Positions 2,290 through 41,826 of a stretch of DNA of 64,000 nt are shown here, piece by piece. Every line of letters starts with the position of its first letter. The stretch's first letter is position 1. The notes under the pieces were generated by a model. It saw only the letters and a list, made by a program, of their open reading frames with translations. It did no database searches and had not been told where the DNA came from. The translations under genes and the position numbers were made by a program. This DNA comes from an uncultured Limnohabitans sp. (GTDB taxonomy: Bacteria > Bacteroidota > Bacteroidia > Cytophagales > Cyclobacteriaceae): positions 39,549 to 103,548 of the forward strand of contig CAZGYC010000005.1 in NCBI GenBank assembly GCA_964530015.1. The letters run 5' to 3'.

Positions 2290-5200
2290 ATGAAACACTA
2301 CCTGACCTCTTTGGGGCTTGCTTTTTTGTTTTTTGCCTGCGATCAGCAGACCAAGCTTGGAGTTTCCCGGGAAGTACCCTCCTACAGTCCGCCTGTGATC
2401 CGGGAGCTTGCTTCCCTTCCTGATTCCCTTCAGCCCATTTCCGTGAGCCTGCAGGACTTGCCACCGCCGAGAAAGATCCAGGTCCCGGGACAGGATGGAG
2501 GCAGCTATGTTTTTCTCGACGAAAACGGAGAGTCCCAGACCATCGCCCTTTTGGCCCCTGTCAGACAGGACCTGCAGGTATTGCTGGACGAAAGCGGAGA
2601 GGTAATCAGGGATTCTGGAGGCAAGCCCTTTCTTCTCGGAGAAGGCGGGCTTTCCCAGTTCAAAACCTATACGACAGATGACGGACTGGCACTCGATGCG
2701 GTCAATTGCGCCATTCTGGACAGCCGGGGCCACCTTTGGTTTGGGACAAACGGAGGCGGGGTAAGCCGCTACGATGGAAGCACGTTTACCAACTTTACCA
2801 CGGCACAGGGATTGGCGGGAAATATCCTCAGAAGTATGCTGGAAGACCGCAAGGGCAATATCTGGTTTGGGACCATCAGTGGAGTGAGCAAGTACGATGG
2901 CTACAGCTTTACCAACTATACCCGCGAAGACGGCCTCGGCGACGATGGCGTGTTCAGCATCTTGGAGGACCAAGACGGAACGATGTGGTTTGGTACGGGT
3001 GGGGGGGGCGTCAGCAAGCTCGAAGGGGAAAAATTCACCACCTACAGAACCGCAGACGGCCTCGCCGACAACTTTGTGATCAGTATCCTGGAGGGCGGGC
3101 AAGGCATCCTCTACTTTGGCACCTATGGAGGGGGGCTCAGCAGGTTTGACGGCCAGACCTTCAAGAATTTCACCGAGCAAGACGGCCTCTCCAGCAACCG
3201 CGTCAGGAGCCTCAGCCACAGCAGTCCGGGCAAAATCTGGATCGGGACGATCGGTGGCGGGGCAAGTCTTTTTGACGGCCAGACCTTTGCCAACTATTCG
3301 GTCAAAGACGGTCTGGCGGGCGATATCGTCCGTACCATCATCGAGGACTCCCACGGACACACCTGGTTTGCCACCGAGACTGGGATCAGCAGGTTGGACG
3401 GACGGAATTTCACCTCCTACACCCGTAACCAGGGACTGCCTGCCAACTCGGTGCTGTCCATCGTAAAAGATGCCTCGGGAAAACTCTGGTTTTGTACCGA
3501 CGGAGGCGGGGTAGCCCGGTTTGACGGCATCGCTTTCACCAATTTTTCGGTGACCCAAGGCCTGGGAAACAACATCGTACTCAGCACCCTGGAGGACAGG
3601 GAGGGAAATCTCTGGTTTGGGACAGCCGGTGGGGGAGTCAGCAAATTTGACGGGAAAAGCTTCCTCACCTACACCACCTCCCAAGGCCTGGGGGGAGACA
3701 TCGTGATCAGCATGATCCAGGATCGCGCCGGGAATTTCTGGTTTGGCACGGGCGGCGGGGGCGTCAGCAGATTTGACGGAAAGACATTTACCACCTACAC
3801 CAGCGCCCATACGCTGGGAGCCGATGAGATCTATTCGATCGCCGAAGACCGTCTGGGCAACCTTTGGTTTGGAAGCGAAGGCGGCGGACTGAGCAAATTT
3901 GACGGAAATGCCTTTACCACCTATACCTCCGATCACGGGCTTGCCGGCAATGTGATCCTCAGCATCCAGGAAGATGCGGAGAATCAGTTGTGGATCGCAG
4001 CCGTAGACGGCGGGATCAGCAGATTCGACGGGGAAAAATTCACCAACTTCTCCACCGCCCAAGGCCTGGCCAACAATGCCGTGGTCCGGATAAAAGAAGA
4101 CCTTCAGGGAAATCTCTGGATCGGCACGGAGCAGGGCTTGTCTTTTCTTCCAAAAAACAAACTCCTCTCCCAAACGAATCCCGGCGACTCCGCGTCTTAT
4201 TTTCTGTCTTTTGGAACACCCGAAGGACTCCCGGACAATCTGATCCAACAGATCGTCCCCATGGAAAACGGAAAAATAGCCGTCGGTACCAACCGTGGTT
4301 TTGCCTTTTTCGATGCCCCAAAAGCGGGAGAGGAATTCACGACGCTCGAAAATATCGAGACCTTCAACTCCAATACGGGCTATCCCGTCAAAGACCTCAC
4401 AGACGGACAAAACGGGATGTTTCAGGACAGCAAGGGGATCCTCTGGGCAGGCACGGGAAACAACAAGACCGCCCTGGTTCGCTTTGACCACCGGGAATTG
4501 GCCCTAAACCAAAGCCCTCCCCGGATTTTTCTCAAGCAAATCCGAATCAACGAGGAAATCATCTCCTGGAGCAGCCTTGCAGAACACCCCGCCCCCAAGG
4601 CCACGGTCTCCGAGGAACTGGCCACCTATGGCAAGGAACTCAGCGCAACCGAAAGAGAGGACTTGAGACGGAAGTTTGGCGGAATTGCCTTTGATGCCGT
4701 TTCCCCGTTTTACCCTTTCCCGCAAAACCTGGTTCTCCCCTATCGGCACAACCATATCAACATCGATTTCGGATCGGATGAACTGGCAAAACCCGACTTG
4801 GTAGAATACCAGTACATCCTGGAAGGGTATGATGCCACATGGAGCCCGGTGTTGAAAAAAACAAGCGCCACCTTTGGCAACATCCTGGAGGGAGACTATA
4901 CCTTCAGGGTAAAGGCGCGATTTACGGGACCTTCTGAGGAAGCGGCTGGGGAATGGACCGAACCGATCGAGTTTTCCTTTTCGGTGGAGCCCCCGATATT
5001 CCGCACCTGGTGGGCGTTTGTGGTCTATGCGCTGCTGTTCCTGTCGATGATCTACCCCATCCACCGGTACCAAAGGAACAAGGCGATCCATGCAGAGCAG
5101 GAAAAAGCCAGGGAACGGGAACTCGAACAGGCCCGGGAGATCGAAAAAGCCTACACCAAGCTGGAATCGGCCCATGAAAATCTGAAAGCCACCCAAAACC

Positions 5201-5982
5201 AACTGATCCAACAGGAAAAACTCGCGTCCCTGGGCCAGTTGACCGCGGGCATCGCACACGAAATCAAAAACCCGCTCAACTTCGTGAACAACTTCTCCGG
5301 ACTAAGCCTGGAGTTTTTGGATGAAATCGCGGAGGAGCTCGACAAAATGCCCGAGAGTGATTCCCTGGAAAACGTAAGGGACCTCCTGGCCGACATCAAG
5401 ACCAACCTGACCAAGATCAAGCACCACGGTGGCAGGGCAGACGGGATCGTGAAGTCCATGCTCATGCACTCCAGGGGAGGCAGTGGGGCGATGGAGCCTT
5501 CCGACCTCAACGAGGTGATCAAGGAATACGTCAATCTTTCCTTCCACGGGATGAGGGCCAACAAAAACCCGATCAATGTGGACGTAATTCTCAAATTGGA
5601 CGAAAGCCTTCCAAAAATCCCCCTCAATACGGAGGATTTCAGCCGGGTGATTCTGAACCTGACCAAGAATGCCTTTGATGCGATGCGGGAAAAAATCAAC
5701 AAATCCGGGCCGGAATACAAAGCCAAACTGGAAGTACGGACCACAGACCTCGGCGATTCCATCCTGATCGAAGTCGAGGACAACGGCCCCGGAGTGCCTG
5801 GGGAGATCCGGGACAAGCTGTTGATGCCTTTCTTTACCACCAAAAAAGGGACGGAAGGCACCGGACTGGGCCTCTCGATCACCCATGATATCATCAAAGC
5901 CCACAACGGCTCCCTGGACATCAGCTCGGAAGTCGGTGAGTGGACCCGGTTCAGCATTACGATTCCGAAGCAGGCCGATTGA
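2290..5982 (+). CDS. Sensor histidine kinase HK1: periplasmic Reg_prop beta-propellers, Y_Y_Y domain, TM helix, HisKA, HATPase_c
   Basis: About 44-aa blade repeats (GNIWFGTxGGGVSxFDG), Y_Y_Y-like LEGYD...GDYTFRVKA, TM segment WWAFVVYALLF, H-box AHEIKNPLNF, G boxes DNGPG and GTGLGLS. Start moved to ATG 2290, which gives a signal peptide. Confidence 0.92.
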   Translation: MKHYLTSLGLAFLFFACDQQTKLGVSREVPSYSPPVIRELASLPDSLQPISVSLQDLPPPRKIQVPGQDGGSYVFLDENGESQTIALLAPVRQDLQVLLDESGEVIRDSGGKPFLLGEGGLSQFKTYTTDDGLALDAVNCAILDSRGHLWFGTNGGGVSRYDGSTFTNFTTAQGLAGNILRSMLEDRKGNIWFGTISGVSKYDGYSFTNYTREDGLGDDGVFSILEDQDGTMWFGTGGGGVSKLEGEKFTTYRTADGLADNFVISILEGGQGILYFGTYGGGLSRFDGQTFKNFTEQDGLSSNRVRSLSHSSPGKIWIGTIGGGASLFDGQTFANYSVKDGLAGDIVRTIIEDSHGHTWFATETGISRLDGRNFTSYTRNQGLPANSVLSIVKDASGKLWFCTDGGGVARFDGIAFTNFSVTQGLGNNIVLSTLEDREGNLWFGTAGGGVSKFDGKSFLTYTTSQGLGGDIVISMIQDRAGNFWFGTGGGGVSRFDGKTFTTYTSAHTLGADEIYSIAEDRLGNLWFGSEGGGLSKFDGNAFTTYTSDHGLAGNVILSIQEDAENQLWIAAVDGGISRFDGEKFTNFSTAQGLANNAVVRIKEDLQGNLWIGTEQGLSFLPKNKLLSQTNPGDSASYFLSFGTPEGLPDNLIQQIVPMENGKIAVGTNRGFAFFDAPKAGEEFTTLENIETFNSNTGYPVKDLTDGQNGMFQDSKGILWAGTGNNKTALVRFDHRELALNQSPPRIFLKQIRINEEIISWSSLAEHPAPKATVSEELATYGKELSATEREDLRRKFGGIAFDAVSPFYPFPQNLVLPYRHNHINIDFGSDELAKPDLVEYQYILEGYDATWSPVLKKTSATFGNILEGDYTFRVKARFTGPSEEAAGEWTEPIEFSFSVEPPIFRTWWAFVVYALLFLSMIYPIHRYQRNKAIHAEQEKARERELEQAREIEKAYTKLESAHENLKATQNQLIQQEKLASLGQLTAGIAHEIKNPLNFVNNFSGLSLEFLDEIAEELDKMPESDSLENVRDLLADIKTNLTKIKHHGGRADGIVKSMLMHSRGGSGAMEPSDLNEVIKEYVNLSFHGMRANKNPINVDVILKLDESLPKIPLNTEDFSRVILNLTKNAFDAMREKINKSGPEYKAKLEVRTTDLGDSILIEVEDNGPGVPGEIRDKLLMPFFTTKKGTEGTGLGLSITHDIIKAHNGSLDISSEVGEWTRFSITIPKQAD

Positions 5983-5985
5983 TTT

Positions 5986-6099
5986 GGGGTAGTGTATGTA
6001 GTTTGGGTCTTGGTGATCGGATTATTGTATCCTTTGTGCAGGTGGTTTGATCGCTATAAAACGAACAACAAAGACAAGTGGTGGCTGAGCTACCTGTAG
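5986..6099 (+). pseudogene. 3'-end remnant (38 codons) of a DUF1624-family gene
   Basis: Translates GVVYVVWVLVIGLLYPLCRWFDRYKTNNKDKWWLSYL*. Matches 11390-11503 with 6 mismatches in 114 nt. Confidence 0.9.
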
Positions 6100-6332
6100 A
6101 AACAAAAAGGCTGGCCCAATCGATGAATTAGGCTGAAAAAAAACAGGGAAAAGAGAAACCGATGTCTGGGAATACACTGAACCGGAGGATTGCCGATGGA
6201 TTGGCTTGGGCCCTGGGAAGGCGCAATGTGGAGAAATAATCTCAGAAAGTGCTTTAAAATCAAGTAGTTCGTTCAAATTCACTATTTTGTCCCTCCAACT
6301 TCCCGTTTGTCCCCAACCTTTCTCCTTTTCAA

Positions 6333-9300
6333 ATGATAAATTTTAAAAAGTGGCTGTTCTTTTTGCCCCTGGTCTTCTTGAATTTGCCACGCTTGGCCTC
6401 TGCACAGGAGATCAGCGTTGAGCCCATCTCCATTTCCAACGGCCTGGCCTCTCCTTTTGTGGTTGATATCCACCAAGACGGCTACGGATTGATCTGGCTG
6501 GCGACGGGCAACGGCATCCAGCGTTACGACGGGTTTTCCTACAAGACCTTCCGCAACATTCCCGGCAATCCGGCCAGCCTCCAGGACAGCCAGTCTTTTG
6601 ACATCGAAGAGGATCAAGACCACAATCTCTGGATTGCCAACAATTTGGGCGTTTCCAAGTTTGATCGCGCTGCCAACAGCTTTGTCAACTATAACTTCGA
6701 AAAAATCTTCAACCTTGCTTCCGGTTCGGGAAGGGTTCTGAAGATCCTGGTGGATTCCCAGGGAAGGGTTTTTGCGGGAAGCGTCGCCAAGGAACTTGTC
6801 CAATTTGACCCCGAGAGAAACACCTGGGTTCAGCCCAAATACAAGGAGCCAGACTATGTTCCCAGCGAATTTGTCGGGATTTCGGTCTCCCTGGCAGAGG
6901 ATTCCCAGGGGGGCGTTTGGATTGGGTCCAGTACTTATGGCTTGATGCACCTTCCAAAGGGCGAGTCTGAGATTGCCCCGCTGGAGTTGGATCCCTCATT
7001 TGGTTTCAATTCCCCTTCCAATGAAATTACCGCCCTGCATTTTGACCAAGCCGACAAACTTTGGATTGCCTCCAGGCAGGGAATCTACACGATGGACAGG
7101 GCCACTCGGAAGGTGACTACACTCAAAGAATACACCGAGGCTCAGGAGGAATTTCTGAACCGCCTCAACTGCATCGTGGAGGACCAGGAAGGCAACATCT
7201 GGATCACCAACAACTTCCGTGGAATTTTGAAATTTGATCCCAAGTCGGAAAAATACCGGGAAATCCAGATCCCGGGCAACAGGAGGATTTTGGGAATGGG
7301 ATGGGAGATCCGGATGGCCCGGATGCTGGTGGACAAAAGCGGGATTTTTTGGTTTGGCACCTATGGCAGGGGCCTTTTCAAATACGATCCGGTAAACAAA
7401 CCCTTCAGTTTCCTGAGCCACGGGCCCGGAAATCCAAACAGCCTAAGTTCAGGCGGGGTTTTTGGGCTTTTGGCTTCCACGGCAAATCCAGGCCGGATCT
7501 TTATCGGCACACGCGGCGACGGGCTTACGGTTTTGGATGAAAAGGACAATTCTCTGCGGAAAGTCCGGTATCAATCTTCCGCCGATATTTTTGGAGGCTC
7601 CGTGAGATCCATCGGGGAGCAACAGGACGGCTCCCTTTGGTTGGGAACCTGGGGAGACGGATTGATCAAAGTGGACAAAAACCTCAAAGAAACCAAACGC
7701 TTCGCCAACAGTCCCGGTGATGAAAACAGCCTGGTCAACAATCAGGTGCGAGTCATCCGGGAGGATCGGAACGGCAAACTCTGGCTGGGGACCAACGGGG
7801 GCTTGACGATTATGAATCCGGAGACGGAATCGTTCCGGGAAGTGCCGAGCCGGTTCTTTCAAACCTATTCGGAGGAGATCATAGCCCAAGTCCAAGGCTG
7901 GCTGGACGCCAAGGAAGAAATCGGGATCATCGACCAGGTGGGAGCAGTCCAGAATTTATCCAAAGAGGTTAAAATCACCGAGGCCGGGACTTATTTCCTG
8001 GCTTTGGTGGGCGAAGGGGACCAGGCCTCCATGGCTGATTTTGGTTGGATTGCAGATTCAAACGGCGATACACTTGCCGGAATGGAGGATTTTGCCACGA
8101 GCTACCATGCAGGAGGAGCGGCCAAAAACAGAATGGTCATCGAAAAAGTAGAACTGACTCCCGGCACCTATACCCTGCACTATCAGTCAGATGACAGTCA
8201 CCACGTTGGCTCTTGGAACGAAAATCCCCCAGAACAACTCAGTCTCTATGGAATCGCCCTTTTTGGCAAGGATGCGGGTGACGAAAACCCGGCCATCATC
8301 AGCCTAAGCGAAGAGAAGGGCGAATCAATCATCCTGGGGCCAAATATTTCAGACATAGAAATTGGGGCGAAATACGTCTGGGTGGCCAGCAATTTTGCCG
8401 GGATCACCCGAATCGACCCTGAGACCAATCTGGTCAGGTACTATGAACACAAAAAAGAAGACATTGCCTCCCTCAGCAGCAACGAAATACTGGATCTCCA
8501 CGAAGACCAAAATGGCTTGCTTTGGGTAGTCACCAATGTCGGACTGAACATCATCGATCCCAAGACCGACCATATCACCAAATACAGCGAGGAAGAGGGC
8601 CTTGCCACCAATTTGCTGGAGGCGATTTTGCCGGGAGAAAATGGGGAAATGTGGCTTTCCTCCCAGAATGGACTGACCCAAATGGTTCGGAATGAGGAAC
8701 TCAACAAAGTCACCTTTATCAACTACAACCTGGAGGACGGAATCGGCGGAGAGGTGTTTCTTTCGCTTGCGGCCGGCAAAAGCCCGGACGGCAGGTTCTA
8801 TTTCGGCGGGGAGCATGGGCTGACCACCTTTACCCCGGTGGCTTCCAAAAGCATCCCGCCGTCAGTCATCATTTCCAATCTGCTGATTTCCAACAGGTCG
8901 GTCTATGAAATGGGCGGGGATTCTCCACTTCGGGAAGATTTGCTTGCCGCAGACCGGATCACTTTGCGGTATGACCAGAATGACCTGAGCTTTGAATTTG
9001 CCGCACTCCATTTTGCCAATCCTTCCAAAAACCAATATGCGCACATGCTGGTGGGGCTGGACGAGGACTGGATCTACAACAACCGAAATTTCGCCTCCTA
9101 CACCAATCTGGAGCCTGGCACCTATGAATTCAAAGTGATCGGCTCCAATGCCTACGGCGTATGGAACCAGGAAGGAAAAACCCTGAAAATCACCATTTTG
9201 CCACCGTGGTGGCTGACTTGGTGGGCTTATTTGGGATATGCGGTTCTGGCCGTGGTTTTGGTTCTGGCGGTCCTGGGAGCAGTCAGAAAGCGGATCCAAT

Positions 9301-10184
9301 CCAGGGAGCACCAAAAAAACCGGGAAAAGGAACTGGCCCATGCCCGGGAGATCGAAAAGGCCTATGGCGAACTCAAAGCCACCCAAGTCCAACTGATCCA
9401 CTCCGAAAAAATGGCCTCCCTCGGCGAACTGACTGCAGGCATCGCCCACGAGATCCAGAATCCGCTGAATTTTGTCAACAATTTTTCCGAAGTCACCAAT
9501 GAACTGATCGCGGAGATCGAGGAGGAAAGGGCCAAAGGCCGGGAATCACGCGATGAAGAGATGGTGACCGAGATCCTGGGAGACATCAGGGAAAACCTGA
9601 TCAAGATCAACCATCACGGCAAGCGGGCGGACACCATCGTCAAAGGAATGCTGCAGCACAGCAGGTCCGGGTCGGGCCAAAAAGAACTGACCGACATCAA
9701 TGCACTGACCGACGAATACCTCCGACTGAGCTACCATGGCCTGAGGGCAAAAGACAAAAGCTTCAACGCGGATTTTAAGATGGATTTGGATCCCGACCTT
9801 CCCAAGATCCACGTGGTGACACAGGATATCGGGCGGGTGCTGCTCAACATCATCAACAATGCTTTTTATGCCTGTTCCTTGAATGGGAAAGACCTTCCAG
9901 GTTTTGAAAACCTGGAAGGTCTGACCCCACCCCTCATCACCGTATCCACCAAAAACTTCGGCGACAAAATCCAGATCTCGATCAAAGACAACGGCCCCGG
10001 CATCCCGGATGCCGTGAAGGACAAAATCTTCCAGCCTTTCTTTACCACCAAACCCACCGGGCAGGGAACGGGCTTGGGATTGAGCTTGAGTTACGACATT
10101 GTGAAAGCGCATGGGGGTGAATTGAAGGTGGAGACTGAGGAAGGGAAGGGAAGTACGTTTATCGTGCAATTGCCCATCACTTGA
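6333..10184 (+). CDS. Sensor histidine kinase HK2: propeller with an inserted domain, Y_Y_Y, TM, HisKA, HATPase_c
   Basis: Signal peptide, propeller repeats, LEPGTYEFKVIGSN, TM segment WWLTWWAY, AHEIQNPLNF, DNGPG and GTGLGLS. Confidence 0.92.
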   Translation: MINFKKWLFFLPLVFLNLPRLASAQEISVEPISISNGLASPFVVDIHQDGYGLIWLATGNGIQRYDGFSYKTFRNIPGNPASLQDSQSFDIEEDQDHNLWIANNLGVSKFDRAANSFVNYNFEKIFNLASGSGRVLKILVDSQGRVFAGSVAKELVQFDPERNTWVQPKYKEPDYVPSEFVGISVSLAEDSQGGVWIGSSTYGLMHLPKGESEIAPLELDPSFGFNSPSNEITALHFDQADKLWIASRQGIYTMDRATRKVTTLKEYTEAQEEFLNRLNCIVEDQEGNIWITNNFRGILKFDPKSEKYREIQIPGNRRILGMGWEIRMARMLVDKSGIFWFGTYGRGLFKYDPVNKPFSFLSHGPGNPNSLSSGGVFGLLASTANPGRIFIGTRGDGLTVLDEKDNSLRKVRYQSSADIFGGSVRSIGEQQDGSLWLGTWGDGLIKVDKNLKETKRFANSPGDENSLVNNQVRVIREDRNGKLWLGTNGGLTIMNPETESFREVPSRFFQTYSEEIIAQVQGWLDAKEEIGIIDQVGAVQNLSKEVKITEAGTYFLALVGEGDQASMADFGWIADSNGDTLAGMEDFATSYHAGGAAKNRMVIEKVELTPGTYTLHYQSDDSHHVGSWNENPPEQLSLYGIALFGKDAGDENPAIISLSEEKGESIILGPNISDIEIGAKYVWVASNFAGITRIDPETNLVRYYEHKKEDIASLSSNEILDLHEDQNGLLWVVTNVGLNIIDPKTDHITKYSEEEGLATNLLEAILPGENGEMWLSSQNGLTQMVRNEELNKVTFINYNLEDGIGGEVFLSLAAGKSPDGRFYFGGEHGLTTFTPVASKSIPPSVIISNLLISNRSVYEMGGDSPLREDLLAADRITLRYDQNDLSFEFAALHFANPSKNQYAHMLVGLDEDWIYNNRNFASYTNLEPGTYEFKVIGSNAYGVWNQEGKTLKITILPPWWLTWWAYLGYAVLAVVLVLAVLGAVRKRIQSREHQKNREKELAHAREIEKAYGELKATQVQLIHSEKMASLGELTAGIAHEIQNPLNFVNNFSEVTNELIAEIEEERAKGRESRDEEMVTEILGDIRENLIKINHHGKRADTIVKGMLQHSRSGSGQKELTDINALTDEYLRLSYHGLRAKDKSFNADFKMDLDPDLPKIHVVTQDIGRVLLNIINNAFYACSLNGKDLPGFENLEGLTPPLITVSTKNFGDKIQISIKDNGPGIPDAVKDKIFQPFFTTKPTGQGTGLGLSLSYDIVKAHGGELKVETEEGKGSTFIVQLPIT
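9890..9922. repeat. Perfect 33-bp palindrome (REP-like) inside the HK2 coding sequence
   Basis: AGACCTTCCAGGTTTT g AAAACCTGGAAGGTCT; 16-bp arms. Confidence 0.85.
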
Positions 10185-10321: not shown

Positions 10322-11503
10322 ATGACAACAATCCCCTCCCCGAACCCCAGAATCTCCTCCATTGATCTGGTCAAAGGCCTCGCCATGGTCATCATGGCCT
10401 TGGACCATGTTCGGGATTATGTGCATGCGCCTGCTTTTTTGTTTGATCCGGCGGACCCTGCCCAGACGACTTTGGCGATATTCTTTACCCGATGGGTCAC
10501 CCACTTCTGTGCCCCTGCATTCAGTTTTCTGGCCGGTATGTCAGCTTTTATGGTTGGCAAAAGAAAACCAAAAAGGGAATTGTCAGGGTTTCTTCTCAAA
10601 AGGGGACTTTGGCTTATTGCTATTGAAATGACCGTTGTGAATTTTGCATGGCTTTTTGATTTGAGTTTCGGGACCATCTTGCTGGTGGTCATTTGGTCAT
10701 TGGGAGTCAGCATGATCGTCTTGGCGGGTTTGGTTCACCTGCCCCGCAAGGCCATCCTGATTTTCAGCCTTGCGCTGATTTTTGGGCATAACCTCCTTGA
10801 CGGAATCCGAATGGACGAGTCGATTTGGTGGGCTGTTCTCCACGACGACCAACTGTTCCAATTGTCCGACAATCTTCTGTTGGCAGTAGGCTATCCCATC
10901 GTTCCTTGGATCGCAGTGATGTCTTTGGGCTATTGCCTGGGATCTTTTTACGACAGTGCCATGGATCCGGTCAAAAGAAAGCGGACATTCAACCTGATTG
11001 GGATTTGTGCAATTATACTGTTTGTCGGATTGCGGTGGACCAATGTCTATGGGGACCCAATTGCATTTGCCCATTTTGGCACAATTTCAAAGAGCCTTGT
11101 TTCATTTCTGAATCCAAGCAAGTATCCGCCCTCTCTTTTGTACCTCTTGATGACCTTGGGAGGGACATTCCTCCTTTTGGCCAACTCCGAAAGATGGAAG
11201 GGAAAAGCCGTGGATTTCATGTGTACGTTCGGAAGGGTGCCGTTCTTTTACTACATCCTCCACTTGTACCTGATCCACCTGATTGCGTTTGGTTTGGCAA
11301 CGCTTACCGGTTTTGGCTGGGAAAAGAACGTGGTCCTGTCGACCTGGGGAATTGTTGAAAACCCCATTCCCGGATATGGGTTCCCGCTTTGGGTAGTGTA
11401 TGCAGTTTGGGTTCTGGTGATCGGACTGTTGTATCCTTTGTGCAGGTGGTTTGATCGCTATAAAACGAACAACAAAGACAAGTGGTGGCTGAGCTACCTG
11501 TAG
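10322..11503 (+). CDS. DUF1624 / heparan-alpha-glucosaminide N-acetyltransferase-like membrane protein
   Basis: RISSIDLVKGLAMVIMALDHVRD, FFTRWVTHFCAPAF, KYPPSL and a WWLSYL C-terminus; multi-TM. Confidence 0.9.
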   Translation: MTTIPSPNPRISSIDLVKGLAMVIMALDHVRDYVHAPAFLFDPADPAQTTLAIFFTRWVTHFCAPAFSFLAGMSAFMVGKRKPKRELSGFLLKRGLWLIAIEMTVVNFAWLFDLSFGTILLVVIWSLGVSMIVLAGLVHLPRKAILIFSLALIFGHNLLDGIRMDESIWWAVLHDDQLFQLSDNLLLAVGYPIVPWIAVMSLGYCLGSFYDSAMDPVKRKRTFNLIGICAIILFVGLRWTNVYGDPIAFAHFGTISKSLVSFLNPSKYPPSLLYLLMTLGGTFLLLANSERWKGKAVDFMCTFGRVPFFYYILHLYLIHLIAFGLATLTGFGWEKNVVLSTWGIVENPIPGYGFPLWVVYAVWVLVIGLLYPLCRWFDRYKTNNKDKWWLSYL

Positions 11504-11531
11504 GAACTGGTTTTGGGCCGGGGGTTACCCG

Positions 11532-12584
11532 TTATCTAAAACCTTCATTGATCAGGCTCAGTGCTTGGTTCCCCGGGCACAGCGTATTTTCCTTCAATTG
11601 GTTCAGCGGGATCTCGCTGGTGTTCAGCGTCCGGTGGAGGTCCTTCCACTCGGTGTTGACATAAAGCAGTCCGGTCAGGATCTCCTCTTTCGCCCGCGCT
11701 TTTTGCAGAGCATTCACCGCAGCAATCCGGTCTTCGGGATCCCAGTCCAAGGCCAGCTTGTTCAACTGGATTTCCGAGCCATCGTGCATTTCCACTTGGG
11801 TGGATCTTCCTGCGTCGTAGCGCACATTGATCTCCTTTTTGGGAGGAACCAGATCCCTGGCCGAAGTCGCCTCAATATGCTCCCGGACGTAGTCATAGGA
11901 TTTGGTGGAGCCGGGGTTGTTGTTGAAAGTGACACAGGGAGATATCACGTTCAGAAAGGCAAATCCCGGATGCTGGATGGCGGCTTTGAGCAAAGGAATC
12001 AGTTGCTGCTTGTCACCACTGAAGCTTTGCGCCACAAAGGAGGCCCCCAGCTCAATGGCCATGCTGGCCAAGTCGATCGCCTGAAAGGGATTGATCGATC
12101 CCGATTTGTTTTTGGATCCCTGGTCTGCCGTGGCCGAGTCCTGTCCCTTGGTCAGTCCATAGCAGCCGTTGTTCATCACCACATAGACCATGTTCAGGTT
12201 TCTGCGAATCACATGGACAAACTGCCCCATGCCGATAGAGGCGGAATCCCCGTCTCCGGACACTCCAAAATAGACCAGATTCCGGTTTGCCATGTTGGCT
12301 CCTGTCGCGACGGAGGGCATCCGCCCGTGCACGGAGTTAAACCCATGGGAATTTCCCAAAAAGTAGGCCGGGGTCTTGGAAGAGCAGCCGATCCCGGAGA
12401 TTTTGGCGACCAGGTGCGGCTCAATGGACAATTCGAAACACGCCCGAACAACCGCGGCACTGATGCTGTCGTGCCCACAGCCCGCACACAGGGTGGACAG
12501 GCTTCCTTCGTATTCCTTGAGGGTATATCCCAGTTTGTTTTTGGGAAGCTTGGGATGGCTAAACAGCGGTTTCAGATAGCTCAT
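11532..12584 (-). CDS. korB: 2-oxoacid:ferredoxin oxidoreductase beta subunit (TPP-binding)
   Basis: LCAGCGH, GIGCS, HGRMPS, GDGDS...NN TPP motif, SPCVTFN. Confidence 0.9.
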   Translation of the reverse strand: MSYLKPLFSHPKLPKNKLGYTLKEYEGSLSTLCAGCGHDSISAAVVRACFELSIEPHLVAKISGIGCSSKTPAYFLGNSHGFNSVHGRMPSVATGANMANRNLVYFGVSGDGDSASIGMGQFVHVIRRNLNMVYVVMNNGCYGLTKGQDSATADQGSKNKSGSINPFQAIDLASMAIELGASFVAQSFSGDKQQLIPLLKAAIQHPGFAFLNVISPCVTFNNNPGSTKSYDYVREHIEATSARDLVPPKKEINVRYDAGRSTQVEMHDGSEIQLNKLALDWDPEDRIAAVNALQKARAKEEILTGLLYVNTEWKDLHRTLNTSEIPLNQLKENTLCPGNQALSLINEGFR

Positions 12585-14394
12585 GGCTGGAGTGGTTTTC
12601 TGGGTTTAGACAATGGGTGATTTGCTGCCGGATCGAGTCGGCTGTGATCGGCATCCCGTCGTAGTTGAGCACCGGCACGAGTTTTTTTGGATTGCAGTCC
12701 AGCTCCATGATCAGCATCTTGCGCATCTGGGCATCCCGGTTTTGTTCGATCACGAAAACCTGGGAGTGGCTGTCCACAAACTCGGCGACTTCCTTTCCAA
12801 ACGGGAAGGCTTTGATCCGGATGGAATCCACGGCAATCCCTTCTTCGGCGAGCAGGTCTTTGGCTTCTTCCGACGAAAAGGTGGAAGTGCCAAAAAACAG
12901 GATACCAACAGCCCCCGGACTGGAGGAAACACTGATTTCCGCGGACGGAACCAGTTGTTTGGCAGTCTCCCATTTCCGGATTAGCCGGTTCATGTTCCTT
13001 TCGTAGGCCGCTCCGTCTTCCGTATAGGCCGCATAGTCATCCTTGGAAGTCCCCCTGGTAACAAATGCCCCTTTGGTGGGGTGTGTACCGGGATAGGTTC
13101 GATAGGGAATCCCGTCTCCATCCGGATCCAGGTACCTGCCAAACTTGCCCATATCCTCCAACTCCGCTGCCGTCAACACTTTGCCCCGCTTGTAGTTCCT
13201 TTTGCTGTCCCACTCAAACGGATCACTTATGTGATCATTCATCCCCAAATCCAGGTCAGTCATCAGGATTACCGGCGTTTGCAACTGCTCCGCCAGATCA
13301 AAGCTCTCGGCAGTCATCCCAAAACACTCCTTGGGCGTAGCAGGGAAAAGCAGGATATGTTTGGTGTCTCCGTGGGAAGCAAAACCCGCTGCCATCAGAT
13401 CGGACTGCTGGGTACGGGTCGGCATTCCGGTACTCGGACCCGCCCGCTGCACATCGATCAGCACCGCGGGAACTTCCGCAAAATAGGCCAATCCCAAAAA
13501 CTCGCCCATCAGCGACACGCCGGGTCCCGAGGTCGCCGTAAAAGCCCTGGCTCCGTTCCAATTGGCTCCGATCACCATGCCCATGGCGGCGAGTTCGTCC
13601 TCTGCCTGGATGATCGCGTAGTTGTTTTCACCGCCTTCCGTTTTTCTGTATTGCTTGCAATAAGTTTCAAAAGCTTCGGCCACGGAAGTAGAGGGAGTAA
13701 TCGGATACCAGGCCATGACGGTTGCCCCTGCAAATACCGCCCCCAATCCGCAGGCGGTGTTCCCGTCCACCAGAATCTTGTCTTTCAACAGTTCCCTTTT
13801 TTCCAGCCTGAATGAAAGGGGAAATTCATGGTGTTTTTCCACATAGTCCATTCCCAAATCCAAGGCTCTGAAATTGGCCTCAATGAGTGCCTTTTTTCCT
13901 TCAAACTGTTCCTCTATCAGCTTTCGGATGACCGATTCATCCATCTCCAGCAATCTGACCAGCGCGCCGACATAGATGATGTTTTTCAGCAGTTGCCTTT
14001 TGCGTGGATCCTCAAAAGCCGCGTTGGCCATTTCCATCATCGGAATCCCGAGGTATTGGATGCCTTCCCGGAGATATTCCGGGGCGAGTTTTTTGGTGCT
14101 GTCGTAGACAAAATATCCCCCTTCCTTCACATTCTGCACGTCCTGGGCCATACTTTGGGGATTCACGCTGACCATCAGGTCCACCCCTTCCCGGCGGCCC
14201 AGGTAGCCTTTTTCGCTCACCCGGACCTCATACCAGGTCGGCAAGCCCTGGATGTTGGAAGGGAAAATATTTTTGGGGGTGACCGGAATCCCCATTCGGA
14301 AGATTGTCTTGGCAAACAGGTAATTGGCACTTGCCGATCCTGTCCCGTTCACATTGGCAAAACGGACGATAAAATCGTTGATTCGATGGTTCAT
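12559..14394 (-). CDS. korA: 2-oxoacid:acceptor oxidoreductase alpha subunit (gamma-alpha fusion)
   Basis: NVNGTGSAS, WYPITPSTS, QAEDELAA, TSGPG, VQRAGPSTGMPT. Start at ATG 14394 overlaps the upstream stop (ATGA). Confidence 0.9.
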   Translation of the reverse strand: MNHRINDFIVRFANVNGTGSASANYLFAKTIFRMGIPVTPKNIFPSNIQGLPTWYEVRVSEKGYLGRREGVDLMVSVNPQSMAQDVQNVKEGGYFVYDSTKKLAPEYLREGIQYLGIPMMEMANAAFEDPRKRQLLKNIIYVGALVRLLEMDESVIRKLIEEQFEGKKALIEANFRALDLGMDYVEKHHEFPLSFRLEKRELLKDKILVDGNTACGLGAVFAGATVMAWYPITPSTSVAEAFETYCKQYRKTEGGENNYAIIQAEDELAAMGMVIGANWNGARAFTATSGPGVSLMGEFLGLAYFAEVPAVLIDVQRAGPSTGMPTRTQQSDLMAAGFASHGDTKHILLFPATPKECFGMTAESFDLAEQLQTPVILMTDLDLGMNDHISDPFEWDSKRNYKRGKVLTAAELEDMGKFGRYLDPDGDGIPYRTYPGTHPTKGAFVTRGTSKDDYAAYTEDGAAYERNMNRLIRKWETAKQLVPSAEISVSSSPGAVGILFFGTSTFSSEEAKDLLAEEGIAVDSIRIKAFPFGKEVAEFVDSHSQVFVIEQNRDAQMRKMLIMELDCNPKKLVPVLNYDGMPITADSIRQQITHCLNPENHSSHELSETAV

Positions 14395-16193
14395 TTTAGA
14401 GCGGGAAAGGGAGCGGGAATCTGATAGGCTTTGGTCACACTGTAGAAATATTTCTGCATGTCCCAGGCAGAGGTCGGGCATCGCTCGGCGCAAAGCCCGC
14501 AATGGAGACAGACGTCTTCGTCTTTGACCATCACGCGCCCGGTTTTTAGGATATCGGAGACCAGCAGGTCCTGGGTCGTGTTTTCGGCTGGCACCAACAA
14601 ATTTTGTCTGAGCTGATCCTCCGGCTCATTTGCTGTGAACGTAATGCAGGAGGTGGGACACACGTCCATGCAGGCATCGCATTCGATGCATCGATCCTCT
14701 GTAAAAACCGTCTGCACGTCGCAATTGAGACATCGCTGGGTCTCTTTATAGGCAACGGAAACGTCAAATCCCAGCTCGACTTCCTTTTTTCGGTCTTTGA
14801 GCGTAATGGATTTTTTGGCCTGGGGTACCACATAGCGCTGATCAGCAGCGATCTGACTGTCATAGCTCCACTCGTGGATTCCCATCTTTTGGCTGACCAG
14901 GTTGGTATAGGGAGAAGGCCGGTCCTGCAGGTCTTTTCCCTGGCAAAACAAGTGGATGGACACCGCCGCCTGATGCCCATGGGCCACTGCGGTGATGACA
15001 TTCTCGGGCCCGAAAGCCGCATCCCCTCCAAAAAAGACATTTGGAAGTGTGGATTGAAACGTCTTCCGATCCACCACCGGCATATCCCATTCGTCAAACT
15101 CCAAGCCCAAATCCCGCTCGACCCACGGAAAACTGTTTTGCTGGCCGATGGCGATCAGCACCTCGTCCGCCTCAATAAATACTTCGGGTTCGTCGGTGGG
15201 GATCAGTTGTCTTTTTCCCTTTTCGTCGTACACGGCTCTTACTTTTTGGAATTTCATCCCGACAAGTCGATTCCCATCAATCTCAAAGCTCAAGGGCACA
15301 TGATTGTCAATAATCTGGATATCCTCGTGGGCGGCATCTTCTTTTTCCCAAGGCGAAGCTTTCATTTCGGCAAAGGGGCTCCTTACCACCACCTTGACTT
15401 CCTTGCCTCCCAATCTTCGGGCGGTTCGGCAGCAGTCCATTGCGGTATTTCCCCCGCCTAGGACGATGACTTTTTTGGAAATGGATTTGGTGTGCTCAAA
15501 GGCCACACTCGCCAGCCACTCGATCCCGATGTGGATTGCCGAGGCTCCTTCCTGTCTCCCCGGAAGTTTGGGCAGGTCTTTGCCACGGGGAGCACCTGTA
15601 CCGACGAAAACCGCATCGTATCCTTTTGAAAGCACATCTTTCAGACTTTCGACATAGGTCAAAAACTGGGTATGGATCCCCAAATCCAGGATGTAATCCA
15701 CCTCCTCGTTCAGGACGGTTTCCGGAAGCCGAAAGGAAGGAATCTGGCTCCGCATCATCCCTCCACCGGCAATCTGCTCATCGAAAAGGTGGACTTCATA
15801 GCCCAGCGGAGCCAAATCCCGGGCAACCGTAAGTGAAGCAGGCCCGCCCCCGATCAGTGCAATCCTCTTTCCGTTTTGGGGAAAAGGAGCCTGGGGCATC
15901 AGGCTTTTCACTTCCCCTTTTTGATCGGCAGCAACCCGCTTGAGTCGGCAGATGGCTACCGGCTCCTCCTCCACCCTGACCCTTCGGCAGGCAGGCTCGC
16001 AGGGCCGGTCGCATGTTCGCCCCAATATCCCAGGAAAAACATTGGACTCCCAGTTGACCATATAGGCCTCGGTGTATTTTTCGGCGGCGATCAGGCGGAT
16101 ATACTCCGGCACCGGGGTATGGGCAGGACAGGCGTATTGGCAGTCTACCACTTTGTGATAATATTCCGGATTCCGGACATCGGTCGGCTTCAT
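14391..16193 (-). CDS. GltD-like FAD/NAD(P)H-dependent oxidoreductase with C-terminal 2x[4Fe-4S] ferredoxin domain
   Basis: DCQYACP and CDRPCEPAC N-terminal clusters, GGGPAS and GGGNTAMDC dinucleotide motifs, CIECDACMDVCP and CLHCGLCAERCP. Confidence 0.9.
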   Translation of the reverse strand: MKPTDVRNPEYYHKVVDCQYACPAHTPVPEYIRLIAAEKYTEAYMVNWESNVFPGILGRTCDRPCEPACRRVRVEEEPVAICRLKRVAADQKGEVKSLMPQAPFPQNGKRIALIGGGPASLTVARDLAPLGYEVHLFDEQIAGGGMMRSQIPSFRLPETVLNEEVDYILDLGIHTQFLTYVESLKDVLSKGYDAVFVGTGAPRGKDLPKLPGRQEGASAIHIGIEWLASVAFEHTKSISKKVIVLGGGNTAMDCCRTARRLGGKEVKVVVRSPFAEMKASPWEKEDAAHEDIQIIDNHVPLSFEIDGNRLVGMKFQKVRAVYDEKGKRQLIPTDEPEVFIEADEVLIAIGQQNSFPWVERDLGLEFDEWDMPVVDRKTFQSTLPNVFFGGDAAFGPENVITAVAHGHQAAVSIHLFCQGKDLQDRPSPYTNLVSQKMGIHEWSYDSQIAADQRYVVPQAKKSITLKDRKKEVELGFDVSVAYKETQRCLNCDVQTVFTEDRCIECDACMDVCPTSCITFTANEPEDQLRQNLLVPAENTTQDLLVSDILKTGRVMVKDEDVCLHCGLCAERCPTSAWDMQKYFYSVTKAYQIPAPFPALK

Positions 16194-16330
16194 AGCTATT
16201 TTGGACTACTACAATCTAAAAACTCGAAATTTAACATAGGTATTGGGTATTTAATATAAACAATAATTCTGCAAAAAAGACAAGGGGCAGATTTGTGGAA
16301 ACAAAATGGCGCAGCATTTCCGAACGGGGT

Positions 16331-16531
16331 ATTCATGAAAACGGCCCCGGAATGCCAAACGCGATCATCGACAAGATCTTCCAGCCTTTTTTCACGACCA
16401 AACCCACCGGGCAGGGAACCGGCCTGGGACTCTCGCTGAGCTATGACATCGTGAAAGCCCACGGGGGAGAACTGCAGGTAAAATCAGTGCCGGGAGAGTT
16501 TACCACTTTCACCATTTTTTTGCGAGTTTAA
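16331..16531 (+). pseudogene. C-terminal HATPase_c remnant of a histidine kinase
   Basis: ENGPG...[35 protein letters not shown] with no H-box, N-box or credible start. Confidence 0.85.
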
Positions 16532-16550
16532 AAAACCTAACTTTTACCCT

Positions 16551-16928
16551 ATGAAAATCCTTGTAGTAGACGACGAACGAGATGTGGAAGACCTCTTTCG
16601 CCAGAAATTCCGCAAAGAAATCCGAAATGAGGGACTGGAGCTGCTTTTTGCATTTTCGGGAACAGAGGCCCTGGAAATCCTCGAAAGGAACAATCCCCCG
16701 CAGGTCGCCAGCGTTTTCTCGGATATCAACATGCCCGGAATGAGCGGGCTGGAGATGCTTGGCATCATCAGAACCCGCTTCCCCAAGCTCCGCGTCAGCA
16801 TGATCTCCGCTTACGGCGACGCCGACAACTACCAAAAGGCAATGAGCTTTGGGGCGAAGGGATTTTTCACCAAACCGGTCGATTTCGAATCCCTGAGAAA
16901 GGAGATCGGTGAAATATTGAGAAGCTAA
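16551..16928 (+). CDS. Single-domain response regulator (receiver) REC1
   Basis: ILVVDDE, FSDINMPG (phospho-Asp), ISAYG, FTKP. Confidence 0.93.
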   Translation: MKILVVDDERDVEDLFRQKFRKEIRNEGLELLFAFSGTEALEILERNNPPQVASVFSDINMPGMSGLEMLGIIRTRFPKLRVSMISAYGDADNYQKAMSFGAKGFFTKPVDFESLRKEIGEILRS

Positions 16929-16989
16929 ACCCTGCTTTTTCCCACTTTTCCACTTCAAAAAACAACCCCAAGAAAAGCCACCGAGTACT

Positions 16990-18351
<1,362 letters not shown>

Positions 18352-18353
18352 CT

Positions 18354-18734
18354 ATGAAAATTCTATTTGTTGACGACGAGCGGGATGTAGAGGCACTTTT
18401 TCTCCAGAAGTTCCGAAAAGAGATCAAAAGTGGCCAACTGGAGCTGGCCTTTGCTTTTTCGGGGCAGGAGGCACTGGATCTGCTGGGGGCGGACAATCCC
18501 CCCAAATTCGTCTATGTGTTTTCGGACATCAATATGCCGGGAATGAGCGGACTGGAATTGCTCGAGGAAATCAAATCCCGGTTTCCGCTGATACAGGTAA
18601 GCATGGTTTCGGCCTACGGCGACCAGGAAAATTACGACAAGGCGATGAATTCGGGAGCCAAGGGCTTCTTTACCAAGCCGGTGGATTTTGAAAGGCTGAA
18701 AACGGAAATCGCTGCGCTGGCTGGGGGCAGTTAG
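18354..18734 (+). CDS. Single-domain response regulator REC2
   Basis: ILFVDDE, FSDINMPG, VSAYG, FTKP. Confidence 0.93.
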   Translation: MKILFVDDERDVEALFLQKFRKEIKSGQLELAFAFSGQEALDLLGADNPPKFVYVFSDINMPGMSGLELLEEIKSRFPLIQVSMVSAYGDQENYDKAMNSGAKGFFTKPVDFERLKTEIAALAGGS

Positions 18735-19116
18735 TTTTTTGGAAGGGTGGCCGGACGGCTTCCCAGACCCGGACTTAGGTAGCCAGGTGAGCCATTCCGA
18801 TATTGCCAAAAACACTTTTGGTGATTTGCACGGCAAAATATGTGCTGCAAGATCAGAATATAAGGCTAAATTGGTACTTCGGGCCTGCATCTTGGGAAGA
18901 CAGGCAAAACAGGAGCTGAGGACAATGGAACCGGGGGGAGATTCTGAAACAGTCCCTTTTGTTTTTCACCACAAAAAGGCGAAGGAGATACCGGACTCCG
19001 ATCACGGTCTCCCATTTCCGATACAGCCTGTCAGGGAGACTCAGCGACTGGGTTTTTGGCGGGGATTTGACCCGATTTAGAACGTATTGCCTAAAACAAC
19101 ACCTTAATTTTTTCCA

Positions 19117-19497
19117 ATGAAAATTTTGATTGTAGACGACGAACAGGACGTGGAAATCATGTTCCTCCAAAAATTCAGGCATGAAATCAAAAGCAAACTG
19201 CTGGAAGTGGAATTTGCTTTTTCCGGCGAACAGGCCCTGGATTTGCTGGGAAACTCGGGCTCTCCGGATGTCGTGTACGTATTTTCGGACATCAATATGC
19301 CGGGAATGAGCGGCCTCGAACTTTTGTCCAACATCAAAAGCAGATTTCCCCATATATTAGTAAGCATGATTTCGGCCTACGGAGACAGGGACAACTACAA
19401 CAAAGCGATCGATTCCGGAGCAAAGGGATTTTTCACCAAGCCGGTTGACTTTGAATCCCTGAAAAACGAAATCGCAGAATTGCTAACTAACAAATAA
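19117..19497 (+). CDS. Single-domain response regulator REC3
   Basis: ILIVDDE, FSDINMPG, ISAYG, FTKP. Confidence 0.93.
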   Translation: MKILIVDDEQDVEIMFLQKFRHEIKSKLLEVEFAFSGEQALDLLGNSGSPDVVYVFSDINMPGMSGLELLSNIKSRFPHILVSMISAYGDRDNYNKAIDSGAKGFFTKPVDFESLKNEIAELLTNK

Positions 19498-19498
19498 T

Positions 19499-20539
19499 AT
19501 GGCAAAAATACTGGTAGTCGATGACGAAGAAGATCTGGAAATGCTTTTCCGCCAGAAGTACCGCCAAAAAATCCGATCCGGAGAGTACGAAATGTTGTTT
19601 GCGCTCAACGGGCAACTGGCCATGGATACGCTCAAAGACCACCCGGACGTGGACATGATCCTGAGTGACATCAACATGCCCGTGATGGACGGACTCACGC
19701 TCCTGTCCAACACCAAGGAGAAAAATCCCCTGGTCAAGACCATCATCATCTCTGCCTACGGAGACATGGAAAACATCCGCAAGGCCATGAATCTCGGTGC
19801 CTTTGATTTTGTGACCAAGCCGGTCGATTTTCAGGACCTGGAGATCACCATCGAAAAAACCCTCGGCTACATCAGCCAGATCAAAGGCACCCTGCAGGCG
19901 ATGAGGGAAAACAACATCCTGAGAATGTACGTGGATGAGACCGTCCTCAATTTTATGGGAGGGAAGGAGATCGAAACTGCGCTGATGGAAAACGAGACGA
20001 TAGAGGCATCCGTGGCATTCATCGATCTGGTGGGCTTTACCAAAATCTCGGAAAACGAAGAGCCCAATACCGTCGTGGGCCTGCTCAACGAATACTTTGA
20101 CCTGATGGTCCGGGAAATCATCGACCAAAAGGGGAGCGTGGACAAATTCATCGGAGATGCGGTCATGGCGGTATTCCAGGGGCCTGACCATCTCGCCCGG
20201 TCCATCAATGCCTGCCTGGCCATCCGAAGCAAGATGGAAATCATCCCCGAATACTCCGCGGAGACCCATTTCCGGCCGCAGGTTTCGATCGGGATCAATT
20301 CCGGGGAGATGGTCTCGGGCAACATCGGATCCAAATCCCTCAAACGACTGGACTACACCGTCATCGGTGACGCAGTCAATATCGCGTCCCGCCTCCAAAA
20401 TGCCGCCAACCCCAGCCAGATCCTGATCTTGGACCGCTGTGCAGCGATGGTAAAGGACAAGTTTGAGCTCCAACCCGTGGGAGAAATCAATCTGAAAAAC
20501 AAAGCAAACGCTGTGACGGTTTTTGAGGTGATCGGCTAA
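19499..20539 (+). CDS. Receiver-class III adenylate cyclase fusion
   Basis: N-terminal REC (LSDINMP). Cyclase motifs FIDLVGFT, VDKFIGDAVMA and LDYTVIGDAVNIASRLQ; the K and D specificity residues indicate ATP. Confidence 0.9.
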   Translation: MAKILVVDDEEDLEMLFRQKYRQKIRSGEYEMLFALNGQLAMDTLKDHPDVDMILSDINMPVMDGLTLLSNTKEKNPLVKTIIISAYGDMENIRKAMNLGAFDFVTKPVDFQDLEITIEKTLGYISQIKGTLQAMRENNILRMYVDETVLNFMGGKEIETALMENETIEASVAFIDLVGFTKISENEEPNTVVGLLNEYFDLMVREIIDQKGSVDKFIGDAVMAVFQGPDHLARSINACLAIRSKMEIIPEYSAETHFRPQVSIGINSGEMVSGNIGSKSLKRLDYTVIGDAVNIASRLQNAANPSQILILDRCAAMVKDKFELQPVGEINLKNKANAVTVFEVIG

Positions 20540-41823: not shown

Positions 41824-41826
41824 AAT

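Follow-up and report, generated by a model that had tools for sequence, protein, structure and literature searches.

A rearranged Cyclobacteriaceae locus as a probable multikinase two-component cassette with putative cyclic AMP output

The stretch of DNA considered here (the window; 64,000 nucleotides) carries at positions 2290–20539 a set of sensor histidine kinases (HK), small receiver proteins (REC) and a receiver-fused cyclase, and it raises the question of how several kinases could be connected to one cyclic AMP (cAMP)-forming enzyme. A sequence-only reading had proposed that different sensors were swapped onto a common kinase core, with many inputs feeding one receiver pool and with cAMP as the output. 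The explanation that we consider best, and hold with moderate confidence, is that a conserved Bacteroidota multikinase two-component cassette with cAMP output is present here in a rearranged and partly decayed form. The survey of synteny across Bacteroidota suggested in that reading showed that the cassette recurs in about 150 genomes. Its order is one to six or more kinases on the same strand, next a stand-alone receiver (R) and finally a receiver-cyclase fusion (C). The closest relatives of the window are Algoriphagus (Cyclobacteriaceae).

The gene inventory was obtained from the listing of open reading frames (ORFs) and from Pfam scans of the window. Three intact histidine kinases, each with HisKA and HATPase_c, three stand-alone receivers and one REC-adenylate cyclase were present as had been claimed. 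The absence of a DNA-binding regulator was likewise confirmed, as no ORF in 2290–20539 contains a DNA-binding domain by Pfam. The genes of the system are the following.

2290–5982, + strand: HK1, 1230 aa; lipoprotein-like signal, Reg_prop propellers, Y_Y_Y, one transmembrane (TM) helix, HisKA and HATPase_c
6333–10184, + strand: HK2, 1283 aa; architecture as in HK1
16551–16928, + strand: REC1, stand-alone receiver, 125 aa; Response_reg only
16990–18351, + strand: HK3, 453 aa; hydrophobic N terminus, HisKA and HATPase_c
18354–18734, + strand: REC2, stand-alone receiver, 126 aa; Response_reg only
19117–19497, + strand: REC3, stand-alone receiver; Response_reg only
19499–20539, + strand: REC-cyclase (C), 346 aa; Response_reg and Guanylate_cyc

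Conservation of the cassette and of its components

All but one of the 80 cyclase-anchored loci showed the order of one or more kinases, R and C on one strand; the exception, a Rhodonellum locus, is without R. When R was used as the anchor, 75 loci were obtained from many more genera and families (Cecembia, Fontibacter, Cyclobacterium, Christiangramia, Gelidibacter, Salegentibacter, Cryomorphaceae and Saprospiraceae), and 62 of them contained a kinase of the same type (array kinase) together with R and C. Array kinases in tandem were also found in Aquiflexum, Cognataquiflexum and metagenome-assembled genomes (MAGs) of Chitinophagales and Cytophagales, and R–C follows where the locus is long enough. 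A compact block was present in A. taiwanensis, A. confluentis, A. mannitolivorans, A. boseongensis and strain oki45, in which HK1, REC, HK3, REC and C are enclosed by the conserved gene up635 and a PD40/amidohydrolase gene. Because these flanking genes also enclose the locus in the window, HK1 was assigned to the system despite the 10.5 kb that separate it from REC1 here. HK1 orthologues lie directly 5′ of REC1-HK3-REC-cyclase in five or more species, and an HK3 orthologue (HK452–459) was found in about 25 relatives. In A. chordae, six contiguous kinases are located directly 5′ of R–C, including orthologues of HK1 and of HK2 (64% identity to HK2 in the sensor), and a seventh kinase lies two genes further upstream.

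The output enzyme is not the same everywhere. In Balneolaceae, an array-type kinase and R are followed by a REC-SpoIIE protein (PP2C phosphatase, ~391 aa) instead of the REC-cyclase (L224 3001–4568; also L227, L229, L235, L260, L262 and L265), and its receiver is 58–66% identical to the cyclase receiver. Since the pairing with R survives this swap, R appears to be tied to the kinase/receiver level and not to cyclase chemistry. The swap therefore favors a role of R in phosphotransfer, as sink, buffer or kinase feedback, over a direct action on the catalytic domain. In three MAGs labelled Flavobacteriaceae (L073, L076 and L077), up to three extra class III cyclase-domain genes flank the cassette on the opposite strand (near 2700–3270, 11440–11990 and 13970–14500, − strand); they are about 30–35% identical to the window cyclase domain.

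HK1–3 have the H-box His and the HATPase_c boxes of HisKA-type sensor kinases, with the H, N, G1, F and G2 boxes readable as AHEI[KQ]NPL, NLxKNAxDA, DNGPG, FFTTK and GTGLGL. Within the 64 kb, the array-type H-box is confined to these three proteins. The nearest NCBIfam models for the kinases were AtoS, ZraS and NtrB, each below its cutoff, and no part of the system matched a named NCBIfam family at the cutoff of that family. In HK1, a TM helix near residues 903–921 is followed by the array-type core, which comprises the dimerization and histidine phosphotransfer (DHp) and catalytic and ATP-binding (CA) domains. The periplasmic double-propeller sensor of HK1 is homologous to domains of Bacteroides hybrid two-component systems (HTCS; 3v9f, E = 4e-56, and 4a2l). 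HK2 is a second propeller/Y_Y_Y kinase with a Q-type variant of the core. HK3 has a K-type core, and its residues 1–135 contain several hydrophobic segments with no sizeable loop by hydropathy.

The claim that HK1 and HK3 have nearly the same kinase core under different sensors was borne out, with 74% identity over 266 aa and 61% over 351 aa. Both peptides that had been quoted for it are present and identical in the two kinases, and the core of HK2 is further off (47% identity to HK3). Because about 40% of the third codon positions of these peptides differ, their identity appears to be kept by selection and not by recent conversion. Recent gene conversion or duplication was also rejected on the basis of the higher identity among orthologues (~90%) than between the paralogues (74%). 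Sensor swapping was evident among the relatives, where at least six sensor types are combined with one DHp/CA core: Reg_prop/Y_Y_Y propeller, TPR, SnoaL-like, 7TMR-DISM, compact multi-TM and none. The form without sensor is a ~305-aa HisKA and HATPase_c kinase with a K-type core that adjoins R in marine Algoriphagus (L047 9075–10004 and equivalents in L028–L049). It is located invariably directly 5′ of the receiver and cyclase, after several sensor-bearing Q-type kinases, and could be a central or regulated kinase. In HK2, a divergent allele with many substitutions and small indels was seen at 9874–9957, before the G1 box, in two of four sequencing runs. Word depth at 9895–9919 was very high, which points to words common to many other kinases of the community.

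The three stand-alone receivers had been described as near-identical, and this description does not hold. REC1 and REC2 are 69% identical, REC1 and REC3 66%, and REC2 and REC3 75%, and identity to the cyclase REC is about 50% for each. Stand-alone R and the cyclase receiver fall into separate deep clades. Each of REC1, REC2 and REC3 represents an old, distinct orthologous group that is maintained across species, and concerted evolution was rejected for this reason. Purifying selection is strong: the ratio of nonsynonymous to synonymous substitution rates (dN/dS), averaged over the whole divergence from three relatives, is 0.03–0.07 for REC1, 0.04–0.07 for REC2 and ~0.08 for REC3, and lies within 0.03–0.08 for these three, HK3 and C. 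The statement that the phospho-accepting Asp, the Ser and the Lys are kept was correct. REC1–3 and the N terminus of C have the residues of a receiver domain, with the acidic pair, Asp, Ser and Lys in all four. Among relatives, 126 stand-alone and 81 cyclase receivers all keep the Asp and the Lys. At the Ser/Thr position, the 81 cyclase receivers have Ser throughout, and of the stand-alone receivers 121 have Ser and 5 have Thr.

Most species have one stand-alone receiver, and species related to the window have 1, 2 or 3. Receivers of the REC1 group sit behind HK1 in some relatives and behind a TPR kinase in others. REC2 begins 2 nt past the HK3 stop, and REC3 ends 1 nt before the cyclase start. 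The REC3 group directly precedes the cyclase in nearly all genomes. It is conserved also in lineages without its upstream kinase, and this retention fits service by other kinases. A relay role for the receivers lacks a required part, because no histidine phosphotransfer (HPt) domain was found in any ORF of 2290–20539 or of the rest of the window. The order of a His-Asp-His-Asp phosphorelay, with HPt between two receivers, is accordingly absent from the window, and an HPt elsewhere in the genome is possible.

C is composed of a receiver (residues 1–118), a helical linker (111–165) and a cyclase homology domain (166–346). The latter matched PF00211 with 91.2 bits against a cutoff of 21.9 (residues 168–341). 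The metal-binding pair D176/D220 and the transition-state residues N294/R298 are present and aligned with those of CyaB. The Lys/Thr signature is formed by K216 in KFIGDA and T287 in DYTVIGDAVN; the adenine-specifying Lys and the Thr in place of Asp mark subclass IIIb. All six catalytic residues are invariant in 80 orthologues, as are D8, D9, D57, S85 and K107 of the receiver. The closest solved structures were Pseudomonas aeruginosa CyaB (3r5g), the photoactivated OaPAC (5x4t), whose match begins in the linker at residue 120, and Spirulina CyaC (1wc0), all of them class IIIb adenylate cyclases. The conservation of the catalytic residues, including the Lys/Thr pair, is in line with the claim that cAMP is the output, and C is most likely a cAMP-making class IIIb adenylate cyclase that would act as a homodimer. 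In the AlphaFold2 model (mean predicted local distance difference test score 77), helix α5 of the receiver runs on as a linker helix (111–144), followed by a low-confidence segment and the catalytic domain. The dimer-interface hairpin 275–289 has low confidence, as a monomer model would give.

With its A. terrigena counterpart, the cyclase shares 93% identity. Its receiver half (19499–19870) is the best-conserved part of the locus, with 98% identity to A. terrigena and three close relatives (L001–L004), compared with 85–90% for the catalytic half (19940–20539). Across the 80 orthologues, 53 of 120 receiver residues are invariant. Database searches returned thousands of REC-cyclase proteins, every one generically named. 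Downstream of the cyclase, the intergenic region 20765–20875 is polymorphic between samples; 41 nt are missing from contigs of three of the four runs, and 47 nt in one run. No tandem repeats were found 3′ of the cyclase.

Docking surfaces and the proposed phosphotransfer

The sequence-only reading had recommended a comparison of the DHp specificity residues, and this was carried out with 190 array kinases from 81 genomes. The H-box reads HEI[KQ]NPLNF[VI]NNFS, and helix 2 reads RAxxIVK[SGA]ML[MQ]HSR. The positions matching H+7, H+11 and H+12 of EnvZ, which are the specificity residues of Skerker/Capra-type analyses, are nearly invariant, with N/N/F almost without exception. The α1 docking helices of HK1 and HK3 are identical, and 30 DHp residues are the same in both. 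On the receiver side, the Spo0F-type contact positions are occupied by E, D, V/L, L/M, Q, K, N, A, Y, G, K, P, V, D and F in all four receivers of the window. The LytTR and OmpR-type regulators of the window, used as controls, differ at these positions. In 126 pairs of R and the C receiver of the same genome, identity was 83% at 16 contact positions compared with 45% at the other 97. The sole systematic contact differences were at Spo0F-15 (V/I in R, L in C) and Spo0F-87 (S/T/K/R in R, M/L in C).

Such a pattern would be expected of a kinase-receiver interface that is shared by design. Because the docking helices are almost identical and the kinase-facing surfaces of R and C are almost the same, all kinases can be predicted to phosphorylate both kinds of receiver. 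The three features that we used as proxies for a multikinase network were all found: arrays in which 1 to 6 or more kinases are combined with a single R and a single C, invariant docking residues and a shared receiver surface. The idea of many inputs to one receiver pool thus stands in part, and the relatives lend it firmer support than the window could give by itself. The invariant DHp contacts, the 83% of shared contacts and the presence of HK1–3 orthologues in operons with receiver and cyclase agree with convergent input, whereas REC1–3 are no redundant pool.

In the model that we propose, each kinase would autophosphorylate on its own signal. For HK1 and HK2, with their HTCS-type propellers, this is probably a periplasmic glycan-like ligand, and for HK3 it is probably a membrane-level cue. 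R and C could then both receive phosphate from every kinase. In C, the effect of phosphorylation at D57 would be transmitted through helix α5 and the linker helix and would change the geometry of the cyclase homodimer, and phosphorylated C would show altered, most likely raised, cAMP synthesis. R would compete for the phosphoryl groups as a buffer or sink, or would feed back on the kinases, and would thereby tune both the gain of the cAMP response and its timing. On the way to the window, R would have been duplicated into three old paralogues, each first behind its own kinase. A metabolic block and a segment with HK2 and a membrane gene would have been inserted. A TPR-type and a SnoaL-type kinase were deleted, so that REC1 and REC3 now lack an adjacent kinase but are still under purifying selection.

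A somewhat different function of R, which we consider rather unlikely, is that of an active regulator instead of a sink. Phosphorylated R would feed back on the kinases in the manner of DivK or would pair with the cyclase receiver and control its dimerization. R and C are neighbours in every case, probably with translational coupling (gap 1–30 nt), they resemble each other at the receiver level as described above, and the pairing of R with a REC-output protein outlasts the swap to PP2C. A precedent is given by DivK and PleD, which share kinases, and DivK regulates those kinases (PMC7003649). Sequence, however, does not separate a regulator from a sink, and this explanation refines the R step of the proposed model without contradicting it.

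Several observations weigh against the shared-phosphotransfer model. The conservation of the H-box is partly a family trait, and identical contact residues are therefore no proof of cross-phosphorylation. The R/C differences at Spo0F-15 and Spo0F-87 could give one kind of receiver a kinetic advantage or even insulate the two. In the clade of the window, each of the three R paralogues sits behind its own kinase and has stayed distinct, which fits a partial one-to-one pairing too. No cyclic nucleotide-binding domain, and hence no candidate cAMP receptor, was found among the scanned ORFs of the 64 kb. Searches for RNA-seq data returned only DNA metagenome runs as holders of the window sequence, and literature searches returned no characterized Bacteroidota REC-cyclase or cassette member. 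In the Dictyostelium cyclase ACR, the receivers beside the cyclase do not control it through phosphorylation; the phospho-accepting residues can be dispensed with, and the HisKA domain has no role other than dimerization (PMC3009899).

The main rival, to which we give a small but real chance, draws on the same points. It holds that the locus consists of insulated pairs, HK1 with REC1, HK3 with REC2 and the lost SnoaL kinase with REC3. The cyclase would be served by the last kinase or, in this genome, by none, and the clustering would result from tandem duplication. The repeated unit in the window clade is indeed a kinase followed by a receiver, with only 2 nt between HK3 and REC2, the receivers form separate stable groups, and R and C differ consistently at two contact positions. 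Most species, however, have several kinases and a single R, and REC1-group receivers stand behind HK1 or the TPR kinase depending on the species. With HK1 and HK3 identical in α1, and with the same α1 and β5–α5 contacts in REC1–3, no differences of the specificity type are visible. REC3 is under purifying selection where its upstream kinase has been lost.

An extension of the proposed model, about as doubtful as the insulated pairs, is that the kinase array, R and a receiver-enzyme form a portable device in which signals are integrated by mixed dimers before phosphotransfer, with R as a travelling phospho-buffer or feedback element. Because the DHp helices are nearly identical, array kinases that differ in their sensors may dimerize with one another and so compute signal combinations. 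R may travel with any output enzyme, namely an adenylate cyclase in Bacteroidota and PP2C in Balneolaceae.

Kinase remnants and rearrangements of the locus

The locus had been read as one cluster with a single kinase remnant, and both statements had to be revised. About 6 kb of unrelated genes (10322–16193), five-sixths of this length on the opposite strand, split the region, and two remnants were identified by tblastn and blastn. The further features of the locus and its flanks are listed below.

22–1929, + strand: up635, an uncharacterized conserved gene; left anchor flanking the locus
5984–6103, + strand: stray 120-nt copy of the membrane-gene 3′ end, directly behind the HK1 stop; left boundary of the inserted HK2 and membrane-gene segment
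10322–11503, + strand: HGSNAT-like membrane gene (Pfam)
11532–16193, − strand: 2-oxoacid:ferredoxin oxidoreductase (OFOR) beta, OFOR alpha and a GltD-like Fe-S flavoprotein (Pfam)
16331–16531, + strand: Remnant 1, 3′ stump of a TPR-sensor kinase (tblastn; blastn against A. terrigena)
~18799–19105, + strand: Remnant 2, stump of a SnoaL-sensor kinase (tblastn; blastn against L005)
21215–24844, + strand: PD40/amidohydrolase gene; right anchor flanking the locus

Remnant 1 consists of the last ~65 codons of a kinase, in frame, with the G1, F and G2 boxes and the stop, and is 73% identical to the HK2 C terminus by tblastn. Compared with A. terrigena, ~2.8 kb are absent between the GltD-like gene and REC1 (L001 4291–7089; blastn), and the deletion also took the upstream region of the former first gene. 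The intact counterpart (L001 5107–7284) encodes 725 aa with TPR, HisKA and HATPase_c. Remnant 2 is the degenerate and frameshifted last ~300 nt of a kinase, from the N-box to G2. Here ~1 kb is absent between REC2 and REC3 in comparison with an Algoriphagus MAG (L005) and several other relatives, and the intact counterpart (L005 8659–9990) encodes 443 aa with SnoaL_3, HisKA and HATPase_c. A. terrigena and close relatives are likewise without the SnoaL-sensor kinase. With two kinases deleted, the network is shrinking in this genome. The window sequence derives from a metagenome, and four independent metagenome runs reproduce it. An assembly artefact at the two deletion junctions was ruled out, as each lies inside a single error-free contig in all four.

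The metabolic block between HK1 and the receiver operon occurs in only part of the genus and is absent there in the compact species. The 5.4-kb segment with HK2 and the membrane gene is bracketed by a direct repeat (5984–6103 and 11388–11507; 120 nt, 94% identical, 74 nt exact). Neither the 120-nt repeat nor the membrane gene was found in the loci of relatives that had been fetched up to that comparison. The flanking repeat and this absence point to an insertion by recombination, and the segment looks like the product of a single crossover. Unitigs break at both repeat copies, inside the 74-nt exact part, and the join rests on the original assembly. Depth equal to that of the neighbours in four samples argues for a single chromosomal copy and makes an assembly artefact at this insertion less likely. 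In every one of the four runs, one contig connects 17729 (HK3) with 20080 (cyclase) and skips 2350 nt, with only 21 letters on the shorter side; this is probably a chance word join.

The assumption that the system is a non-functional, decaying relic in this genome is very improbable, for although two kinases are reduced to pseudogene stumps, unrelated genes separate HK1 and HK2 from the receiver operon and the upstream region of the former first gene is gone, the seven remaining genes are intact with all catalytic and phospho-acceptor residues, dN/dS is 0.03–0.08 as an average over the whole divergence, and the receiver-cyclase operon shows no differences across four samples.

No Rfam family was found in the window. 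A scan for sigma-70 promoters and terminators gave counts no higher than in shuffled sequence, with a consensus that is ill-suited to Bacteroidota, and the Bacteroidota motif TAnnTTTG was not found within 200 nt upstream of the genes. Elsewhere in the window, an ordinary two-component pair of a LytTR regulator and a His_kinase-type sensor is located at 28752–30571 (− strand), and an OmpR-type pair at 46991–49392 (+ strand). The region 40783–45328 (− strand) is a type IX secretion cargo module, in which PorP/SprF paralogues (40783–41823 and 44288–45328) bracket an SprB-repeat/PKD/CHU_C protein (41827–43929).

Related systems and significance

The closest working analogue of the cassette is the DivJ/PleC (PdhS)-DivK-PleD system of Caulobacter and Agrobacterium (PMC7003649). 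There, too, several kinases act on a single-domain receiver and on a receiver-fused nucleotide cyclase with a second-messenger output. PleD, however, is a GGDEF diguanylate cyclase that makes c-di-GMP, whereas the window encodes a class III adenylate cyclase. The DivJ/PleC kinases are scattered and polarly localized in Alphaproteobacteria, in contrast to the tandem array kinases with swapped sensors, and the likeness was compared at the generic REC/HK level. In the Chp system of P. aeruginosa (PilG/PilH, CyaB; PMC10519157, 3r5g), single-domain receivers and cAMP synthesis also belong to one pathway, and CyaB is the solved structure that the window cyclase domain resembles most. It carries a MASE2 membrane domain, lacks a receiver and is under the indirect control of a CheA-type kinase, whereas the window cyclase has its own receiver and classical HisKA kinases.

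Cyanobacterial CyaC (Spirulina/Anabaena; 1wc0) shares the class IIIb catalytic domain with the Lys/Thr pair. In the account of Kasahara and Ohmori (1999) given in PMC1183210, its cyclase activity is controlled by phosphotransfer to the adjacent receiver. CyaC combines REC, HK, REC and cyclase in one polypeptide with a single input, whereas the window has separate genes, many kinases and an extra stand-alone receiver. Dictyostelium ACR (PMC3009899) likewise combines a class III cyclase with histidine-kinase and receiver domains. Convergence of several kinases on a shared receiver is known from KinA-E/Spo0F (PMC8749435), Pak/PhyR-SdrG (PMC5898713), MrrA (PMC5964349) and GacS (PMC5992135). These systems end in transcription or sigma-factor control and use HPt or partner switching. 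The cassette differs from them in that no HPt was seen in the window, the end point is a cAMP-making enzyme and the kinases form one array. The sensor of HK1, probably for a glycan-type ligand, has homologues in Bacteroides HTCS such as BT4663 (4a2l/4a2m, 3v9f). HTCS fuse sensor, kinase, receiver and an AraC helix-turn-helix DNA-binding domain in one polypeptide, whereas HK1 and HK2 end after HATPase_c and lack both a receiver and a helix-turn-helix domain.

Multikinase networks as such are already known, and new in the cassette is the combination of a tandem sensor-swapped kinase array with an obligatory stand-alone receiver and cAMP output. In an early census, the first Bacteroidetes genomes to be sequenced yielded no adenylate cyclases (PMC1183210), and cAMP signalling in Bacteroidota is almost unexplored. 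Because the cassette links up to six or more kinases to one cyclase, it would be a major entry point for cAMP control in environmental Bacteroidota. For two-component research, it would provide a natural and compact multikinase network with an easily measured enzymatic read-out. Its natural variants, with at least six sensor types, 1–3 stand-alone receivers and 1 to 6 or more kinases, would allow signal integration, the role of the receiver and kinase cross-talk to be probed.

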